Source: Arenimonas sp. (GTDB lineage: Bacteria > Pseudomonadota > Gammaproteobacteria > Xanthomonadales > Xanthomonadaceae). From it: DNA of 64,000 nucleotides. This document shows, in pieces, positions 52,651 to 60,445 of the stretch (position 1 is the first letter of the stretch; each line of letters starts with the position of its first letter). The stretch covers positions 27,701 through 91,700 of the forward strand of contig NZ_DATGBO010000042.1 of assembly GCF_035312645.1 (NCBI RefSeq). The letters run 5' to 3'. Position numbers and translations under genes: made by a program. A model generated the notes under the pieces. The model saw only the letters and a list, made by a program, of their open reading frames with translations, had not been told where the DNA came from and made no database searches.

Positions 52651-53166
52651 GTGTCAGACATCAATAATCCCTATGCCGCGCCCGCGGCACAGGTGTTTCG
52701 TGCTGCATCCGTCTCCGGCCTGTCGCTGGCCGAGCGCGGCAGTCGCCTCGCCGCCGTCATCGTCGATTCGTTGATCACCTTTGCGCTCTACCTGCCACTG
52801 CTGATCGGCGTGCTCGTTTCCGATGGCAGGCAGGGCGATGCGCATGAAACTCCGGTGGCGCTGATCATCGGTGGCCTGATTTCCGTCGTCGGCGCGATCG
52901 CCCTGATCGTCTACACGGTGCAACTGGTGAGCCAACGTGGCCAGACCATCGGCAAGCGCGCGCTCGACATAAAGGTCGTCCGCGGCGATGACTCGCCGAT
53001 CGGACTGGGCCGCAGCTTCTGGCTGCGCAACTTCGTTCCCGCCCTGATCGGTATCGTGCCCCTGCTCGGCCCGATGTTCTCCCTCGTCGATATCCTGATG
53101 ATCTTCAGCGACGACCGCCGCTGCCTGCATGACCGCATCGCCGACACCAAGGTCGTCAAGAGCTGA
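52651..53166 (+). CDS. RDD family membrane protein
   Basis: NPYAAP, LAERGSRLAA.IVD, GQTIGKRAL.IKVV, RCLHDRIADTKVV; GTG start after an AGGGG RBS. Confidence 0.85.
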   Translation: MSDINNPYAAPAAQVFRAASVSGLSLAERGSRLAAVIVDSLITFALYLPLLIGVLVSDGRQGDAHETPVALIIGGLISVVGAIALIVYTVQLVSQRGQTIGKRALDIKVVRGDDSPIGLGRSFWLRNFVPALIGIVPLLGPMFSLVDILMIFSDDRRCLHDRIADTKVVKS

Positions 53167-53864
53167 TGCCGACCGCTGCACCGCCGCTCGACACCTTGCG
53201 CGAAGTCGAAACACCGGAAGGCGTGGCGCTGACCTTGCGTGCCGCCGGCCCGGTGCCGCGGGCGCTGGCCTGGCTGATCGACTTCACGCTGCGGCTCGGC
53301 ATTGTCTGGGTCGTGGCAATGATCACGACCCTGCTCGGCCATGCCGGCAATGGCGTGATGGCGGTGATCGTGTTCCTGGTCTACTGGGGTTATCCGATCG
53401 CGCTCGAGGTGTTGTTCAACGGCCAGACCTTGGGCAAGCGCGTGATGGGCCTGCGCGTGATCCGCGACAACGGCGCGCCGATCGGCTGGATCCCGTCGAT
53501 CGTGCGCAACCTCATGCGTAGCGTCGACATGTTTCCGGCGATGTACGGTTTCGGCCTCGCCAGCTGCCTGATCGATCGTCACGCGCGCCGGCTCGGCGAC
53601 ATTGTCGCCGGCACCCTGGTCGTGCATGTCGATCCGCCGGAGCGCGTGCTGTATGCCCCCGAGGTTCCGCCGCTGCCGCTGCCAGTGCTGCTGTTGCGCG
53701 AAGAACAATCGGCGCTGGTCGCATTCGCCGAACGCGCGCCTTTGATCACCCGTGAGCGCCAGGAAGAACTCGCCAACCTGCTGGCACCGCTGACCGGCGC
53801 TGCCGGTTCGCTGGGCGTGCAGCGCTTGTTCGGCTACGCCAACGGCTTGCTGGGGCGGCGATGA
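53166..53864 (+). CDS. RDD family membrane protein
   Basis: ETPEGV.L, RALAWLID, GQTLGKRVMGLRV, RRLGDIVAGTLVV. Confidence 0.88.
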   Translation: MPTAAPPLDTLREVETPEGVALTLRAAGPVPRALAWLIDFTLRLGIVWVVAMITTLLGHAGNGVMAVIVFLVYWGYPIALEVLFNGQTLGKRVMGLRVIRDNGAPIGWIPSIVRNLMRSVDMFPAMYGFGLASCLIDRHARRLGDIVAGTLVVHVDPPERVLYAPEVPPLPLPVLLLREEQSALVAFAERAPLITRERQEELANLLAPLTGAAGSLGVQRLFGYANGLLGRR

Positions 53865-54865
53865 AGCAGGAAGTTTTCATCGCCCGCCACGCCCAGGAAT
53901 GGGCCACGCTCGAGCGCTGGCTGGACCGCTACGAGGGTTCGCGCCGCAGCAGCAAGTCGCGGCTCTCGCCTTCCGAAGACGGCCCCACCGAACTGGAATT
54001 CCCCGCGCGCTACCGTCGTCTTTGCCAGCAATTGGCGATCGCCAGCGGTCGCGGTTACAGCCCGCTGGTGGTCAATCGCCTGCAGGCGCTGATGGAGCGC
54101 GGCCACGGCGTGATGTACCGGCCGCCAGCGCCGCGCTGGCGCACCGTCGCCGATTACGTGCTCGCGGGTTTTCCGCGACTGGTGCGCGCTAACGCGCGCT
54201 GCATGCTGCTGGCGGCACTGCTGCTGTATGTGCCGATGCTGTCGATGATCGGCGCGATGCAGGTGTATCCGGAACTCGCGCATGCGTTTTTCAGTCCGGC
54301 CGAACAGGCGCAGTTCGAGGAAATGTACGACCCGACCGCCGCGCATGTCGGCCGCGATCGCGAAGCCAGCGGCGACATGGAAATGTTCGGCCTGTACATC
54401 TGGAACAACGTCAGCATCGGCTTCCGCACGTTCGCCAGCGGCCTGGTTTTTGGCATCGGCGCGATCGTCGTGCTGGTGATGAATGGCGTGAGCATCGGTG
54501 CCGTCGCCGGACACCTGCAGGCGATCGGCTATGGCGCGCCGTTTTGGAAATTCGTGGTCGGACACTCGGCGTTCGAGCTCACCGCCGTCGTGATCTGCGG
54601 CGGCGCCGGCCTGCGCCTCGGGCTTGCGCTGATCGCGCCCGGCCGCCAGACCCGCGGCCGCGCCCTGGTCGAGGCCGGTGTCGTCGGCGCGCAACTGGCG
54701 ATGGGCGGATTCGCGATGCTGGTCTGCGCGGCGTTCATCGAAGCGTTCTGGTCGTCGAACGGCGCCTTGCCGGCAGTGGTGAAATACAGCGTCGGCGCCG
54801 TGTTGTGGTCGATCGTGTTGTTCTGGTTGTGGCGTGGCGGCCGGGGCGTGGTCGATGCGCATTGA
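53861..54865 (+). CDS. Stage II sporulation protein M (SpoIIM)-like membrane protein
   Basis: YRRLCQQLA, YIWNNVSIGF, VVGHSAFELTA, AAFIEAFWS. Confidence 0.82.
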   Translation: MKQEVFIARHAQEWATLERWLDRYEGSRRSSKSRLSPSEDGPTELEFPARYRRLCQQLAIASGRGYSPLVVNRLQALMERGHGVMYRPPAPRWRTVADYVLAGFPRLVRANARCMLLAALLLYVPMLSMIGAMQVYPELAHAFFSPAEQAQFEEMYDPTAAHVGRDREASGDMEMFGLYIWNNVSIGFRTFASGLVFGIGAIVVLVMNGVSIGAVAGHLQAIGYGAPFWKFVVGHSAFELTAVVICGGAGLRLGLALIAPGRQTRGRALVEAGVVGAQLAMGGFAMLVCAAFIEAFWSSNGALPAVVKYSVGAVLWSIVLFWLWRGGRGVVDAH

Positions 54866-56429
54866 TTCGGTCCGCATCGCGCTGCGCCCGCGCATGCCCT
54901 GGGAAGCCATCGATCTCGGCCTGAGCCTGGTGCGCCAGCATGCTGGCGCGATCTGGGGGCCGTGGTTGCTGGTCAGCCTGCCAGTGCTGCTTGTGCTCAA
55001 TGCGCTGGCCTGGTGGATCGATACGCCCTGGCTGGCACTGGTGCTGATGTGGTGGCTCAAGCCAGTGTTCGATCGCGTGCCGCTTTACGTGTTGTCGCGC
55101 GCGGTGTTCGGCCCGGCACCGGGCTGGCGCGAAACCCTGCGCGCACAGGCGAACTGGGGGTGGCGTGCGCTCTGGCCGACGCTGCTGTGGCGACGTCTGG
55201 ATCCATTGCGCAGCCTGCACCTGCCGATCGATCAGCTCGAAGGCCTGCAGGGCGCGCGACGTTCGCAACGGCGCGGCGTGTTGCGCTCGGCGGTGTCCGG
55301 GCCTGCGCTCGTGCTCACCTTCATGCTGCTGTTGTTCGTGCTGGCGCTGTTCGCCTCGTTCTGGATGTTGGTGCTGATGTTCGTGCCCAGCGAATTGCTC
55401 AGCGATTCGGCCAAGGAGTTGTGGGAAACCTTCTTCGCCTCGCCGCCGACCTGGGCGTTGCTGGTCGGCAACGGCGTGTTGTGGTTGGCGGAAACCGCGG
55501 TGGAACCGTTCTATGTCGGCGGCGGATTCGGCCTGTATCTCAACCGCCGCATCCATATCGAGGCCTGGGATCTGGAACTCGGTTTCCGGCGCCTGATCGC
55601 GCGCCTGCGCGATGCCACGCAAGGCCTCGGCGTCGCGGCATTGCTGATGCTCTCGCTACTCGTATGCGTGGGCCTGCCGATGCCGGCAACGGCGGCAGTC
55701 GTACCCGCCAAGATCGCCGACAGCAAAACCGCCGCAGCGGAAAAAACTACGTCGGCGCGGTCGTATCAGCAGGTCTTCGGAGCGGAATATCGTGACGGCT
55801 CCGAAGCCTTCGGCAGCGCAGTGAAGAAGGGCTTCCAGGATCCGCTGCTCGGCGAGAACAAGACCGTGACGTCCTGGCAGCTCAAGAAGCGCTGGGAATT
55901 CAAGCCCGACAAGAGCGAACGCGAACCGCCCGCCTGGCTCAAGGGTCTGGGCGAAGTGTTCGGCATGATCGGCGAATACGGCCTGTGGCTGATCGTCGCG
56001 GTCATCGCGATCTTCATCCTGTTCAATCTGCCGCGCTGGTTCCCCTGGGTACGCGACAAATTCCAGCGCCAGAGTGTCGATCCGGTCAGCGAGCAACGCA
56101 TCGAATTGCCGGTGAAGCTGCCCGACGATCTTCCCGCCGGCGTGCGCAAACTCTGGCGCGAAGGCCAGCGTCGCGAAGCCCTGGCCCTGCTCTATCGCGC
56201 CTGCGTGGTCGGCCTCGCGCAACGCCTCGGCGCGCCGCTGCCGCCCGGCACCACCGAGGCACAATGCCTGCGGCGCGCGCGCGGTCTCAACGACAACGAC
56301 AGCGAGCAGCGCCTGCGCGACATCGTGCGCACCTGGCAGTACGCCGCGTACGCCGGCCGCTGGCCCAGCGACGACGAACTCGATGCCCTGCTCGGCGACT
56401 GGCCGCGACATTTCGGCGGTGCGCGATGA
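54855..56429 (+). CDS. Membrane protein with C-terminal DUF4129-like domain
   Basis: LRPR.PWEA.DLG, LYLNRRIHIEAWDLEL, REALALLYRA, TEAQCL, WQYAAYAG. Confidence 0.75.
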   Translation: MRIDSVRIALRPRMPWEAIDLGLSLVRQHAGAIWGPWLLVSLPVLLVLNALAWWIDTPWLALVLMWWLKPVFDRVPLYVLSRAVFGPAPGWRETLRAQANWGWRALWPTLLWRRLDPLRSLHLPIDQLEGLQGARRSQRRGVLRSAVSGPALVLTFMLLLFVLALFASFWMLVLMFVPSELLSDSAKELWETFFASPPTWALLVGNGVLWLAETAVEPFYVGGGFGLYLNRRIHIEAWDLELGFRRLIARLRDATQGLGVAALLMLSLLVCVGLPMPATAAVVPAKIADSKTAAAEKTTSARSYQQVFGAEYRDGSEAFGSAVKKGFQDPLLGENKTVTSWQLKKRWEFKPDKSEREPPAWLKGLGEVFGMIGEYGLWLIVAVIAIFILFNLPRWFPWVRDKFQRQSVDPVSEQRIELPVKLPDDLPAGVRKLWREGQRREALALLYRACVVGLAQRLGAPLPPGTTEAQCLRRARGLNDNDSEQRLRDIVRTWQYAAYAGRWPSDDELDALLGDWPRHFGGAR

Positions 56430-57562
56430 ATCGCCGCCGCTGGCTGTTCCCTTTGCTGATCGTTGCCGTGATCGCAGTCGCCGTCACGGCCTTTCTGGTG
56501 CTGTTCGAGCAGGTGCCGCAGACGCTGCGTTCGCCGCCGACCGGCGCGGGCCGCTACAACCCGTTGTATGCGCTCGAGCGCAGCCTGGTCGCGCACGGCA
56601 TCGACGCGCACTCGCATCGTCGGCTGGAACTGGCGGCGATGAAACTGCAGCCCGGCGACGGCTTGCTGCTTTACACCGATCCGCGCCTGCTCAGCCAAGC
56701 GCAGGCCGCGGCCGTACTCGCCTGGGTCGACAACGGCGGCCATCTGGTCGTCACCATGCCGCCCAATGACGGTGGCAAACCTGGCGCATTGCTCGAAGAT
56801 ATCGGCGTGAGCGCTTTCGGATACGACGAGGATGCCGGCGGACTTGCGTCTTCATCCTGCGAGTCGCTCACGATGAATCGAGGCGCATCCGCGCGGGACA
56901 TGCTCTGCAGCGACAGCCGTTTTCTTCCGCCAAAAAATGGCGTGCTGGCGACCTGGGGCAACGACGAACGTGGCTATGCCTATGCCCGTTTTGCGCGCGG
57001 GCGCGGCAGCGTGGACGTACTGGCGGATCTCGATTTCCTCGACAGCGATCATCTAGATCGCGATCTCAACTGGCAACTTGCCTATCAGGTGCTCGCGCCG
57101 GCGTTTCCGAAAGGCCGACTGCATCTGGTCTACAACGCCGACGTGCCCTCGTTCTGGCGCATCGTGCTGGCGCATGGCTGGCAGGTTCTTCTCGGTCTCG
57201 CGTTGATGATCGCGACTTGGATCGCGATGCGCAGCCAACGTTTCGGGCCGCTGCAACCAGCGGCAGCGCCACCGCGACGCGCGCTGCTCGAACACGTGCA
57301 GGCCGCCGGCGAACACGCTTGGCGACGCGGTGCCGCGCGCGGCCTGCATGCCGCGCTGCGCGATGCGTTTCTCGCACGCCTGCGCCGTCGTGATCCGATG
57401 GCGATCGCGCTGCAGGGCGAAGCGCGCATCGACTACCTCGCGAAAAAACTCGATACCAGCACGCTGCGCGTGCGCAACGCGCTGGTGCCGCCACCGATCT
57501 TCCACGCCGAAAGTTTCCGCGAGGCCATGGCCACGCTCATCCAATTGGGACTCCGCATATGA
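56426..57562 (+). CDS. DUF4350-like domain membrane protein
   Basis: N-terminal TM, LAWVDNGGHLVV, C-terminal TM then RFGP....RRALLEH; position in the conserved cluster. Confidence 0.72.
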   Translation: MNRRRWLFPLLIVAVIAVAVTAFLVLFEQVPQTLRSPPTGAGRYNPLYALERSLVAHGIDAHSHRRLELAAMKLQPGDGLLLYTDPRLLSQAQAAAVLAWVDNGGHLVVTMPPNDGGKPGALLEDIGVSAFGYDEDAGGLASSSCESLTMNRGASARDMLCSDSRFLPPKNGVLATWGNDERGYAYARFARGRGSVDVLADLDFLDSDHLDRDLNWQLAYQVLAPAFPKGRLHLVYNADVPSFWRIVLAHGWQVLLGLALMIATWIAMRSQRFGPLQPAAAPPRRALLEHVQAAGEHAWRRGAARGLHAALRDAFLARLRRRDPMAIALQGEARIDYLAKKLDTSTLRVRNALVPPPIFHAESFREAMATLIQLGLRI

Positions 57563-58545
57563 CCACCGATACTCCCGTCGCTTTCTTCACCGCCGCCGAA
57601 CTCGGCGAACGCATCGCGGCGGTACGCGCTGAAGTCGAACAGGCTTTTGTCGGCCAACCCAAGGTGCTCGACCAGGTCTTGATGGCCTTGCTCGCCGGCG
57701 GCCACGTGCTGCTCGAAGGCGTGCCTGGGCTCGGCAAGACCTTGCTGGTACGCGCGCTCGCGGCAGCGATGGACTGTGGTTTCTCCCGTGTGCAGTTCAC
57801 GCCCGATCTGATGCCCAGCGATGTCAGCGGCCATGCGGTCTACGATCCGAAAACCGAGAGCTTCAAGATCCGCCGCGGCCCGGTGTTCACCAATCTCCTG
57901 CTCGCCGACGAAATCAATCGCGCGCCGGCGAAAACCCAGGCGGCGTTGCTGGAAGTGATGCAGGAGCAGCAGGTCACCATCGAAGGAAAAAGCTTTCTGC
58001 TGTCGCCGCCGTTCATGGCGATCGCCACGCAGAACCCGGTCGAACAGGAAGGCACGTATCCGTTGCCGGAGGCGCAGCTCGACCGCTTCCTGGTGAAGGT
58101 ACTGCTCGATTATCCGGACCTCGCCAACGAAGTGCGCATGGTCGCCGAGGTCAGCACCGGGCGCACGGCCACCGATTTCGATCTGTCCAAGGTCAAGCGC
58201 GTGCTCGGGCCTGCCGATATCGTCGCGATGCAACGCGGCACCGCCATGGTGACGATCGATGAGGCGGTGATCGACTACGCCGTGCGCATCGTGCGCGCCA
58301 CGCGCGAATGGCCGGGGCTGGCGATGGGCGCGGGGCCGCGCGGCTCACTGGCGTTGGTGCGACTGGCGCGCGCGCAGGCAGTGATGGACGGCCGCGATTT
58401 CGTCACGCCCGACGACCTGCGCACGATCGCCAAACCCGGACTGCGGCATCGTCTCGCGCTGGCGCCGGAGCTGCAGATCGAAGGCCAGCGCGTCGATCAG
58501 GTGCTTGATGCGCTGCTCGCGAAAGTGGATGCGCCACGACGATGA
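57559..58545 (+). CDS. MoxR family AAA+ ATPase
   Basis: HVLLEGVPGLGKT, RVQFTPDLMPSD, LLADEINRA, ATQNPVEQEGTYPLPEAQLDRF. Confidence 0.95.
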   Translation: MTTDTPVAFFTAAELGERIAAVRAEVEQAFVGQPKVLDQVLMALLAGGHVLLEGVPGLGKTLLVRALAAAMDCGFSRVQFTPDLMPSDVSGHAVYDPKTESFKIRRGPVFTNLLLADEINRAPAKTQAALLEVMQEQQVTIEGKSFLLSPPFMAIATQNPVEQEGTYPLPEAQLDRFLVKVLLDYPDLANEVRMVAEVSTGRTATDFDLSKVKRVLGPADIVAMQRGTAMVTIDEAVIDYAVRIVRATREWPGLAMGAGPRGSLALVRLARAQAVMDGRDFVTPDDLRTIAKPGLRHRLALAPELQIEGQRVDQVLDALLAKVDAPRR

Positions 58546-59846
58546 GACCGGCGCCCGCCCTCGTCTGGGCGTTCCTGCTGCTGGCGCTGCTCGGCATTCC
58601 CGTCGCCTGGGGTTACCTGCCGATGGCGGCGTGGCTGATCAGCGGCGCGGCGTTGCTGGTGCTGGCTGTGCTCGATGGTTGGCAGTTGTTGTCGCGCGCG
58701 ACGCCGCAGGTTGAGCGCGATCTGCCGGCGATCCTGCCGCTGGGTCCGGAACGCGAAGTGACACTGCGCCTGCGCAGTGATTCGCGCTTCGGCCAACGCG
58801 TGAGCGTGCACGACCTGCATCCGGGCGATTGGCCGGTGCGCGGCCTGCCGCGGGCGGTGAGCCTGCATCCGGGCAAGGAATCGGCGTTCACCTATCACGT
58901 GTTGCCGATGCGCCGCGGCGCTTTCGTCTTCGAGGGCTGTCATTTGCGTCTGTGGTCGGCGCTGCGCTTGTGGACGCGGCAACGCACCTTGCCGCTGCGT
59001 TCGCCGGTGAAGGTGTATCCGAATTTCGCGCCGCTGGCGAAGTACGCGCTGTTCAGTGCCGAACAGGCCTCGCGCATGGTCGGCGCGCATCTGCAGCGCC
59101 GCCGCGGCGACGGCACCGATTTCCACCAGATGCGCGAATACCGCGTCGGTGACAGCCTGCGTCAGATCGACTGGAAGGCGACCTCGCGCGCGCACCGGCT
59201 GATCTCGCGCGAGTACCAGGAAGAACGCAACCAGCAGGTCGTGCTGCTGCTCGACACCGGCCGGCGCATGCTCGCGCACGATGGTCGCATCGCCCATTTC
59301 GATCACGTGTTGAATGCCTCGCTGGTGCTGTCGTATCTCGCGTTGCGCCAAGGCGATGCCGTCGGCCTGATGGCGCACGGCGGCGCGGCGCGCTGGCTGC
59401 CGCCACAGCGCGGTCTGGGCACGATCGATGCGCTGATGGCGACGCTGTACGATCTCGAGGCGCAGCCGGTCGCCACCGACTATCTCGAGGCCGCGACCCG
59501 GCTCGCGCAGCGCCAGCGTCGCCGCGCACTGGTGATGCTGATCACCAACGGGCGCGACGAAGACATCGAAGACCTGCTCGCCGCCGTCAACCTGTTGCGC
59601 AAGAAACACCTGGTCTGCGTCGCCAGCCTGCGCGAACAGGCGCTGGACGAAACCCTGCAGCAGCCGGTGAACGATCTGTCCGGCGCGATCCGCGCCGGCG
59701 CTGTCGCCAACTATCTCGACGAACGCCGCCGCGCCCACGATGCGCTGCGCCAGCACGGCATCACCGTGCTCGACGTCACCTGCGCGGAGTTGCCGGCCGC
59801 GCTGGTCGAACGCTATCTCGCGATCAAGCGCCAGGGCCGCTTGTAG
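58542..59846 (+). CDS. DUF58 domain (vWA-like) protein
   Basis: VKVYPNF, GTDFHQMREYRVGD.LRQIDWKAT, VVLLLDTGRRM. Confidence 0.88.
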   Translation: MRPAPALVWAFLLLALLGIPVAWGYLPMAAWLISGAALLVLAVLDGWQLLSRATPQVERDLPAILPLGPEREVTLRLRSDSRFGQRVSVHDLHPGDWPVRGLPRAVSLHPGKESAFTYHVLPMRRGAFVFEGCHLRLWSALRLWTRQRTLPLRSPVKVYPNFAPLAKYALFSAEQASRMVGAHLQRRRGDGTDFHQMREYRVGDSLRQIDWKATSRAHRLISREYQEERNQQVVLLLDTGRRMLAHDGRIAHFDHVLNASLVLSYLALRQGDAVGLMAHGGAARWLPPQRGLGTIDALMATLYDLEAQPVATDYLEAATRLAQRQRRRALVMLITNGRDEDIEDLLAAVNLLRKKHLVCVASLREQALDETLQQPVNDLSGAIRAGAVANYLDERRRAHDALRQHGITVLDVTCAELPAALVERYLAIKRQGRL

Positions 59847-59889
59847 GTGTAGGTGTAGGTGTAGGCGTAGGCGTAGGCGTAGGCGTAGG
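59842..59889. repeat. Tandem hexamer array (TGTAGG)4(CGTAGG)4
   Basis: GTAGG at 59843, 59849, 59855, 59861, 59867, 59873, 59879, 59885. Confidence 0.92.
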
Positions 59890-59938
59890 AGCCAGCTTGC
59901 TGGCGATACCGGCGGGTCGCCAGCAAGCTGGCTCCTAC
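59885..59938. repeat. GTAG-type REP doublet
   Basis: GTAGGAGCCAGCTTGCTGGCGA..TCGCCAGCAAGCTGGCTCCTAC perfect inverted arms. Confidence 0.9.
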
Positions 59939-59941
59939 GAA

Positions 59942-60445
59942 TTATTTTTCGGGCGCGTCCTGCTTCTTTTCGGCGGTGGCCTTCACGTCGAACGTCACGC
60001 CTTCGAGGATCTTCAGCGTCGCGGCGAATTCCTCGGCGTTCGCGGCGCTGATCCAGACATGCGCGACGCCATCGCTTTCGCTCTCGCCGAAGCTGATCAA
60101 GGTATCGCGCGCGTAGGCGCCTTGCTTTTCGTCCGGCGAAGCGTTGTACCAGGTGACTTCATACGGGCCGATATGACTGGTCTCGGCCTTGTTCTTTTCT
60201 TCGTGCAGATAGCTCGGGTGCTGGCCGAGATACACGCCGAACACTTGCTGGTCGCCACGCATCGCACGGCAGACATCGAAATCGGGGCCTGTCGTGTGCT
60301 TCCAGGTCAGCCCGGATTTCGCCGGCAGGTGCGGACAGATCGCCGCGGCTTCATTGGCAGCGGCGCTGGGAGCCGCCGTCTTGGCGAAGGCGACGCCGGT
60401 GAGCGCGCAGAGGATCAACGCAACGGATAACGATATTTTTTTCAT
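59942..60445 (-). CDS. Hypothetical secreted protein
   Basis: Clear signal peptide MKKISLSVALILCALTGVAFA; two Cys; no family recognised. Confidence 0.65.
   Translation of the reverse strand: MKKISLSVALILCALTGVAFAKTAAPSAAANEAAAICPHLPAKSGLTWKHTTGPDFDVCRAMRGDQQVFGVYLGQHPSYLHEEKNKAETSHIGPYEVTWYNASPDEKQGAYARDTLISFGESESDGVAHVWISAANAEEFAATLKILEGVTFDVKATAEKKQDAPEK

Follow-up and report, generated by a model that had tools for sequence, protein, structure and literature searches.

A recurring six-gene MoxR-DUF58 cluster with membrane-protein partners in Arenimonas sp.

The locus described here lies in a 64,000-nucleotide stretch of DNA from Arenimonas sp. (contig NZ_DATGBO010000042.1, positions 27,701 to 91,700 of the forward strand; hereafter the window), in which seven consecutive + strand open reading frames, g1 to g7, fill positions 52651-59846, with frames, starts and stops as first annotated. 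Six of these genes, g2 to g7, encoding an RDD protein, a SpoIIM-like protein, a DUF4129 protein, a DUF4350 protein, a MoxR ATPase and a DUF58 protein, make up the conserved unit, and it is well supported that this set is co-inherited and autonomous. The copy in the window is an ordinary member of a widely recurring, uncharacterized six-family cluster, plus an extra RDD paralogue, g1. With regard to function, the reading favored here, held with evenly balanced confidence, is that the locus is an operon coding for a remodelling module of MoxR and DUF58, anchored in the membrane, along with the inner-membrane proteins on which this module acts.

Gene order and distribution of the six-gene unit

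The domains given by the initial annotation of this DNA, as well as its six overlapping junctions, were all recovered by Pfam and from the coordinates of the reading frames; an NCBIfam scan of the locus returned nothing specific beyond Pfam. From g1/g2 to g6/g7, the overlaps amount to 1 (TGATG), 4 (ATGA), 11, 4, 4 and 4 nucleotides (nt). They are kept across ~90 related loci, and the locus is therefore regarded as more than a chance arrangement: the -4 ATGA junction of g2/g3 was found in 67/85 related loci, that of g4/g5 in 82/92 and that of g5/g6 in 81/89, with the -11 junction of g3/g4 in 69/91 and the -4 junction of g6/g7 in 38/91, all of these counts being upper estimates, as the start-picking rule prefers nearby starts.

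Within the order Lysobacterales, 80 loci were compared, all of which carry g3, g4 and g5, with g2 and g6 present in 77 each and g7 in 73; the order g2-g7 is constant wherever the contig allows. On the other hand, g1 lies directly 5' of g2 in only 6 of the 80 loci, plus locus L087 (the counts rest on tblastn, the iterated g1 profile having drifted onto g2-type RDD proteins). The conserved unit therefore has six genes, and g1 is a lineage-specific RDD paralogue accessory to this core. Of the seven-gene operon proposed initially, the coupled genes on one strand stand, and the conserved unit has to be restated as six genes with an accessory RDD gene. The flanks, ALDH, a 203-aa (aa, amino acids) reading frame and the CxxCxxCC gene / aroE and hemB, are also syntenic within Lysobacterales.

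The wider survey covered 301 genomes spread evenly over Pseudomonadota. DUF4350 was found above the cut-off in 65 of them, and 40 of these places were fetched. The order seen in the window, RDD-SpoIIM-DUF4129-DUF4350-MoxR-DUF58 (Type A), was present in 11 of the 40 loci, a second order, DUF4129-DUF4350-MoxR-DUF58-SpoIIM-RDD (Type B), in seven, and the middle four genes only in one. Some 14 of the 40 gave merely a weak DUF4350-type match (L089, L092-L094, L098, L099, L101, L108-L111, L115, L118 and L119), and the three that were checked with Pfam (L099, L111, L118) encode GldG-like ABC_transp_aux proteins beside an ABC-2 transporter and DUF4340, a system different from the MoxR cluster. Since the Pfam DUF4350 model cross-matches GldG-like proteins, the family counts overestimate the MoxR cluster. 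The remaining seven loci had no match to the cluster profiles. In locus L088 (G081:C44, 7965-13183), the set is reduced to DUF4129-DUF4350-MoxR-DUF58 in a genome that has no SpoIIM-family gene, and two overlapping frames share the MoxR sequence between them, so that a frameshift, a pseudogene or an error in sequencing is suspected.

The SpoIIM family was found above the cut-off in 32 of the 301 genomes, and in 31 of these 32 it lies ~2-4 kb from a DUF4350 match; the remaining genome, G092, has a short gene for DUF4129 at a distance of 4.4 kb. The co-occurrence of the cluster genes across genomes, on which the initial annotation had staked its case, thus held in the neighborhood survey, and in two gene orders. 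Type A order occurs in Gamma- and Betaproteobacteria, with Pseudomonas, Stutzerimonas stutzeri, Alloalcanivorax and Endozoicomonas among its hosts, and was also seen on one Burkholderiales contig by independent precomputed Pfam calls; Type B order is that of Alphaproteobacteria (Sphingomonadales, Brevundimonas, Hyphomonas). A comparison of the flanks of the cluster loci revealed no family common to different taxa. In the MoxR tree, Type A and Type B sequences group together with a support of 1.0, and the TgpA-linked MoxR proteins fall outside their clade. The occurrence in two gene orders between unrelated flanks and the single MoxR clade argue that the cluster is an old unit with a rearranged order, and not the outcome of repeated chance assembly.

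Architecture of the encoded proteins

The MoxR AAA+ ATPase is encoded by g6 (57559..58545, + strand, 328 aa; Pfam AAA_3 3.5e-64, 215 bits; AAA_lid_2 5.8e-20). Its Walker A sequence GVPGLGKT (aa 54-61), its Walker B sequence LLLADE (aa 113-118), and the segments ATQNP (aa 156-160) and GAGPRGS (aa 257-263), taken to be the sensor 1 and sensor 2 motifs, are all conserved in 98 homologues, in agreement with the earlier description of an intact MoxR ATPase. The nearest solved structure is 2r44 (1.9e-77). Type B MoxR proteins have GPPGTAKT at Walker A, versus GVPGLGKT here.

DUF58 follows as g7 (58542..59846, + strand, 434 aa; Pfam DUF58, PF01882, 5e-28, aa 196-378), with a weak VWA_2 match (2.8e-4) below the cut-off. 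Hydropathy reveals an N-terminal two-helix membrane hairpin followed by a vWA-like body, which is read as cytoplasmic from hydropathy and charge. With this hairpin the number of membrane products rises to six, from the five counted initially: by hydropathy, g1-g5 and DUF58 are membrane proteins, and MoxR is the sole soluble product. The MIDAS position (metal ion-dependent adhesion site) in g7 reads DTGRR (aa 238-242) and not DxSxS, and the DtGRRM sequence is conserved in 93 homologues; DUF58 proteins linked to TgpA are likewise without a MIDAS motif. A search of PDB sequences with g7 gave nothing meaningful. The insertion of metal, one of the options put forward for the locus at the outset, is disfavored because the MIDAS of the vWA domain of g7 has been lost and its replacement conserved. 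A 2025 review still counts what DUF58 does, and how it relates to MoxR, among the unknowns (PMC12067865).

The largest partner is the polytopic DUF4129 protein g4 (54855..56429, + strand, 524 aa), whose start at 54855 was fixed by the N-termini of homologues (alignments A1, A2). An N-terminal helical membrane domain (aa 1-275) carries the conserved, partly charged motif EPFYVGxGFGLYLNRR...EAWDxE (aa 217-241). Behind the last transmembrane helix (aa 365-390) follows the DUF4129 helical bundle (aa 426-520; Pfam DUF4129 1.4e-9, aa 446-513, nt 56190-56393). A variable, disordered linker is predicted to be periplasmic and the bundle to be cytoplasmic. The AlphaFold2 (AF2) model is all helical, with a predicted local distance difference test (pLDDT) score of 82.9; sequence profiles found no PDB relative of g4, and Foldseek of the model gave nothing better than E = 3.8. 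Homologues of g4 at E<=1e-30 fall into 1,234 clusters at 50% identity; the nearest are all from Lysobacterales, the best being that of Arenimonas oryziterrae (60% identity), and more distant full-length relatives occur in Thiotrichaceae and Burkholderiales. In the Type B loci L090, L091, L096, L103 and L112-L114, the DUF4129 protein measures ~230 aa and is without the polytopic N-terminal domain of g4.

The bitopic DUF4350 protein g5 (56426..57562, + strand, 378 aa; Pfam DUF4350 8e-14) is laid out as a first transmembrane helix (aa 3-26), an alpha/beta DUF4350 domain (aa ~41-236), a second transmembrane helix (aa 243-270) and a five-helix C-terminal domain (aa 284-377), with an AF2 model of pLDDT 87.7. 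The DUF4350 domain is predicted to be periplasmic and the C-terminal domain cytoplasmic; hhalign of g4 against g5 (probability 0.6%) shows that the latter domain is not a DUF4129 relative. Exactly two cysteines are present, C145 and C161, both of them invariant (alignment A3) and both in the DUF4350 domain; since this domain is predicted to face the periplasm, they probably form a disulfide there. With the g5 model, Foldseek retrieved glycosidases of several GH42-type families (E from 1.8e-4); the aligned part appears to be the middle domain of these enzymes, which is not catalytic, in line with the HHpred link between DUF4350 and the GH42 trimerisation domain (Makarova et al. 2015, PMC5898192). 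A tblastn search with g5 against 72,556 plasmids gave no match. The Pfam model hardly picks up the DUF4350 proteins of Type B loci.

Three further membrane proteins open the operon. The accessory protein g1 (52651..53166, + strand, 171 aa, GTG start, ~3 transmembrane helices) belongs to the RDD family (Pfam RDD 1.9e-24), as does the core protein g2 (53166..53864, + strand, 232 aa; Pfam RDD 4.3e-19), whose C-terminal domain of ~80 aa is placed in the cytoplasm by prediction. The polytopic g3 (53861..54865, + strand, 334 aa; SpoIIM family, COG1300; Pfam PF01944 5.9e-32) shows the conserved motifs NN, NG, H..EL and AAF.E; from hydropathy and charge, its basic N-terminal 110 aa would be cytoplasmic and its acidic loop 133-193 periplasmic. 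For a SpoIIM-like protein in another locus (L142, 7037-8011), precomputed annotation puts PF28475 (DUF8413) on the N-terminal domain, whereas this family was absent from the local Pfam scan of g3. SpoIIM acts as a membrane scaffold in engulfment in Bacillus; the source lineage of g3 does not sporulate. The Bacillus protein, part of SpoIIDMP, shares Pfam family membership with g3, and not function. No match to SpoIID or SpoIIP (PF08486, PF07454) was found in the 95.8%-complete genome; a SpoIIDMP machine is thereby ruled out, and the comparison with engulfment drawn in the initial annotation is not to be taken literally.

At its upstream end, the operon is separated by an intergenic region (52507..52650) from a divergent gene (52225-52506, - strand) for a 93-aa CxxCxxCC protein (PF03692, zinc/iron-chelating domain), which lies upstream of the cluster in 39 of the 80 Lysobacterales loci and not in other taxa. 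A putative AGGGGA ribosome-binding site precedes the GTG of g1, and a putative sigma-70-like promoter, TTGCAC-N18-AAAAGT, was read from the sequence ~25 nt before this codon; a consensus promoter scan found none upstream of g1 on the + strand. At the downstream end (59846..59950, + strand), the stop codon of g7 falls inside a hexamer run, (TGTAGG)4(CGTAGG)4, which leads into a perfect hairpin resembling a repetitive extragenic palindromic (REP) element, with 23-bp arms, and then into a U-run; the hairpin is followed by AAUUAUUUUU. The folding energy of the RNA at the operon end is -52.8 kcal/mol (z = -8.5 versus shuffles), and the REP-like hairpin (59884-59950) with the U-run may serve as the terminator of the operon.

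DUF4129, TgpA and the working model

On contig C123 (locus L121, 128-4134), the same genome has a second MoxR-DUF58 pair, and the next protein is of the TgpA type, in which Pfam finds TgpA_N, the core of a transglutaminase, and DUF4129; by profile search the genome has just two DUF58 genes, g7 and this TgpA-linked one. Both systems combine an AAA_3-type (MRP-like) MoxR with a MIDAS-less DUF58 and a polytopic protein that ends in a transmembrane helix and DUF4129. TgpA differs from g4 in its TgpA_N and its periplasmic transglutaminase core, both of which g4 lacks according to Pfam, and the TgpA triad is without DUF4350, SpoIIM and RDD genes. Furthermore, TgpA-linked MoxR proteins form a separate clade, ~40% identical, with the Walker A sequence DLPGxGKT; in the MoxR on C123 this reads DLPGLGKT, Asp replacing the first Gly. 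In the downstream reading frame on C123 (3222-4595), aa 316-448 towards the C-terminus make up an outer-membrane lipoprotein domain of the Slp family.

Across the 301 genomes, DUF4129 gave matches at 69 places, spread over 56 genomes; 22 of these places are of the cluster type and most others are frames of TgpA length. Among 20 TgpA-type places sampled, DUF58 lies immediately upstream in 19, and MoxR is present as well in at least 17; this adjacency was counted from the 20 fetched loci, since the genome-wide DUF58 listing comprised the best 150 matches and TgpA-linked DUF58 proteins score low. Taken over the 22 cluster-type and 20 TgpA-type places, DUF4129 genes adjoin DUF58, usually with MoxR, in 41 of 42. 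The exception is locus L134 (G062:C494, 5729-7828), a TgpA-type gene with no MoxR or DUF58 detected in the 5.7 kb upstream. In g4 and TgpA alike, DUF4129 comes after the last membrane helix; since this holds in both systems, and both stand beside MoxR-DUF58, DUF4129 would offer MoxR-DUF58 a handle on the cytoplasmic side for gripping the membrane partner. In Pseudomonas aeruginosa, PA2875-PA2874-tgpA are co-transcribed, and TgpA is essential and has a periplasmic transglutaminase domain (PMC3507681).

A working model can be put together from these elements. A MoxR hexamer would reside in the cytoplasm, tethered to the membrane by DUF58 through its N-terminal hairpin and MIDAS-less vWA domain. 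DUF58 would dock on the cytoplasmic DUF4129 bundle of g4 and so bridge MoxR to g4. Hydrolysis of ATP would then assemble, disassemble or switch a hetero-oligomeric complex of g2-g5, of which the DUF4350 domain, with its oligomerisation-type fold and probable disulfide, would be the sole sizeable periplasmic element. That such a machine would be stoichiometric, as envisaged in the initial annotation, is an inference from the translational coupling of the genes. As to its output, the assembly or maintenance of the envelope would be most likely, rather than the insertion of metal. Three weak leads point in this direction: the periplasmic enzyme of TgpA, the scaffold role of true SpoIIM, and the finding that Rv3694c (SpoIIM-like) and Rv3695 (RDD) of Mycobacterium tuberculosis co-precipitated with the divisome protein Rv0954 (PMC8093794). 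A broader proposition, tentative and on balance doubtful, would make DUF4129 a general cytoplasmic docking domain by which MoxR-DUF58 modules hold on to polytopic membrane proteins, and the cluster a hitherto uncharacterized class of AAA+-driven inner-membrane machine found in many bacterial phyla including mycobacteria. Alongside the essential TgpA transglutaminase system, this machine would act on a complex that faces the envelope, and might do so where the cell divides.

Several points weigh against the remodelling operon. The unit of six genes is an observation, while the client, the output and the formation of a complex are inferred. The topology on which the model builds is a prediction from hydropathy, charge (positive-inside rule) and AF2 models. 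In the alphaproteobacterial loci, nothing homologous was picked up by a profile built on the N-terminal domain of g4; absent from the alphaproteobacterial form, this domain is therefore not a universal client. BLASTP of the DUF4129 part of g4 against that of TgpA from the same genome gave E = 1.1, their homology being visible at the profile level only. In P. aeruginosa, the MoxR protein PA2875 is dispensable while TgpA is essential (PMC3507681), and MoxR may therefore only modulate its partner. Full-text searches of the literature retrieved no experiment or functional study on any orthologue.

Known systems and alternative explanations

The nearest parallel to the cluster is found in another phylum and is likewise uncharacterized. 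In Mycobacterium chelonae, RNA-seq revealed adjacent, co-regulated orthologues of Rv3689, Rv3691, Rv3692, Rv3693, Rv3694c and Rv3695 (PMC8191103). By annotation, Rv3689-Rv3695, with orthologues in M. chelonae and M. abscessus, comprises the same six families, namely the membrane protein Rv3689, the DUF4350 protein Rv3691, the MoxR Rv3692 (moxR2), the DUF58 protein Rv3693, the SpoIIM-like Rv3694c and the RDD protein Rv3695; occurrence beyond Pseudomonadota is taken from the annotation table of this one paper (PMC8191103). Order and strands differ from those in the window, the "c" of Rv3694c denoting the opposite strand, and in mycobacteria the DUF4129 part, fused in g4 to an N-terminal polytopic domain, appears from annotation to have a shorter gene of its own.

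Bat (Bacteroides aerotolerance) or MRP-type operons (MoxR-DUF58-BatA-E) resemble the cluster in that MoxR is followed by DUF58 and accompanied by membrane-associated partners; phenotypes related to stress and to the envelope have been seen in mutants of Riemerella and Francisella (PMC11834572). MoxR comes first in the Bat operon, however, and fifth of six here, and the BatA/BatB vWA and TPR proteins of such operons have no counterpart: neither BatA/B nor TPR domains occur in g1-g7 or in the flanking reading frames, by which identity with a Bat operon is ruled out. In archaea, Makarova, Galperin, and Koonin (2015) predicted a membrane complex of the DUF4350 family arCOG01314 with COG0714 MoxR and a vWA protein, and they noted bacterial SpoIIM homologues beside vWA and COG0714 genes (PMC5898192). 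In archaea the partners are proteins of the S-layer or Ig-like kind, with no RDD, SpoIIM and DUF4129 set described, and the vWA protein of arCOG01314 is predicted to be secreted (PMC5898192), whereas the DUF58 body here is read as cytoplasmic.

Among the alternatives to a remodelling operon, a novel secretion or transport system is the best surviving, yet unlikely. In this view a conduit would be built from the RDD, SpoIIM-like, g4 and g5 proteins, with MoxR-DUF58 energizing or gating the export of a protein or polymer and DUF4350 acting as GldG does in the GldA/F/G transporter. A secretion or membrane-remodelling complex was indeed proposed for the archaeal DUF4350, MoxR and vWA proteins (PMC5898192), the products are mostly polytopic membrane proteins, and DUF4350 cross-matches the GldG-like ABC_transp_aux proteins. 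True GldG-like proteins, however, occur in another context (ABC-2 transporter and DUF4340) and group separately; with no ABC ATPase or ABC-2 permease in the cluster, a GldA/F/G-type transporter is ruled out. In no taxon examined does the cluster come with a conserved gene for a cargo or an outer-membrane component, or with one of the ABC/secretin type, and no solved transporter was found to share the fold of g4. Furthermore, MoxR ATPases are not known to act as translocation motors.

In RavA-ViaA, NorQ-NorD and CbbQ-CbbO, a MoxR hexamer works with a vWA adaptor, and here too an AAA+ MoxR is paired with a vWA-type protein. This likeness invites the view that the locus encodes a classical chaperone for cofactor insertion or maturation (as in NorQ/NorD, CoxD/CoxE or CbbQ/CbbO), its client being encoded elsewhere and the membrane proteins serving as anchors. 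The pairing of MoxR with a vWA partner is a hallmark of such systems (reviewed in PMC12067865), and NCBIfam gave weak similarity to chelatase and GvpN ATPases. Such a chaperone is nevertheless less likely still than a secretion system. The adaptors of RavA-ViaA, NorQ-NorD and CbbQ-CbbO keep the MIDAS and have a defined enzyme client, whereas here the MIDAS is absent, its replacement is conserved, and the partners are integral membrane proteins; no conserved client gene lies nearby, and five co-inherited membrane partners exceed the needs of an anchor.

A conflict, defence or stress-signalling system of the MoxR-vWA ternary type is highly improbable. The bpMoxR model (PF20030) does match g6 above its cut-off (44.8 bits), and the distribution is patchy (~11% of sampled Pseudomonadota); AAA_3 scores far higher on the same protein (215 bits), PADLOC gives only a P-loop-level match to mad8 (7.9e-4), the locus has no effector, beta-propeller or nuclease, and its constant housekeeping context across Lysobacterales is unlike a defence island. 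Chance adjacency held by local Lysobacterales synteny, for which it may be said that the flanking genes are also syntenic, so that synteny within one order proves little, is effectively refuted by the recurrence of the set with different flanks and another order in other classes, and in mycobacteria, and by its near perfect co-occurrence (31/32).

The remodelling operon thus remains the preferred reading, and the question arises what it adds to existing knowledge. The initial statement that this cluster type has no defined function was upheld inasmuch as no paper assigning one was found, while the neighborhoods of its families had already been described (PMC5898192, PMC8191103). New here are the six-plus-one structure, the finding that both gene orders share one MoxR clade, the loss of the MIDAS as a conserved trait, the predicted topology, in which g5 probably has a disulfide in the periplasm, and the rule that DUF4129 genes stand beside MoxR-DUF58. 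The copy in the window brings no new biology beyond the extra RDD paralogue. Pairs of MoxR and DUF58 abound (of the 301 sampled Pseudomonadota genomes, 201 have DUF58), and the cluster supplies them with a fixed, co-inherited set of membrane partners. Through the adjacency rule it is tied to TgpA, an essential protein of P. aeruginosa, and its presence in tractable genera and species, such as Stutzerimonas stutzeri, Pseudomonas, Brevundimonas and mycobacteria, offers an entry point to the role of MoxR-DUF58 at the membrane.

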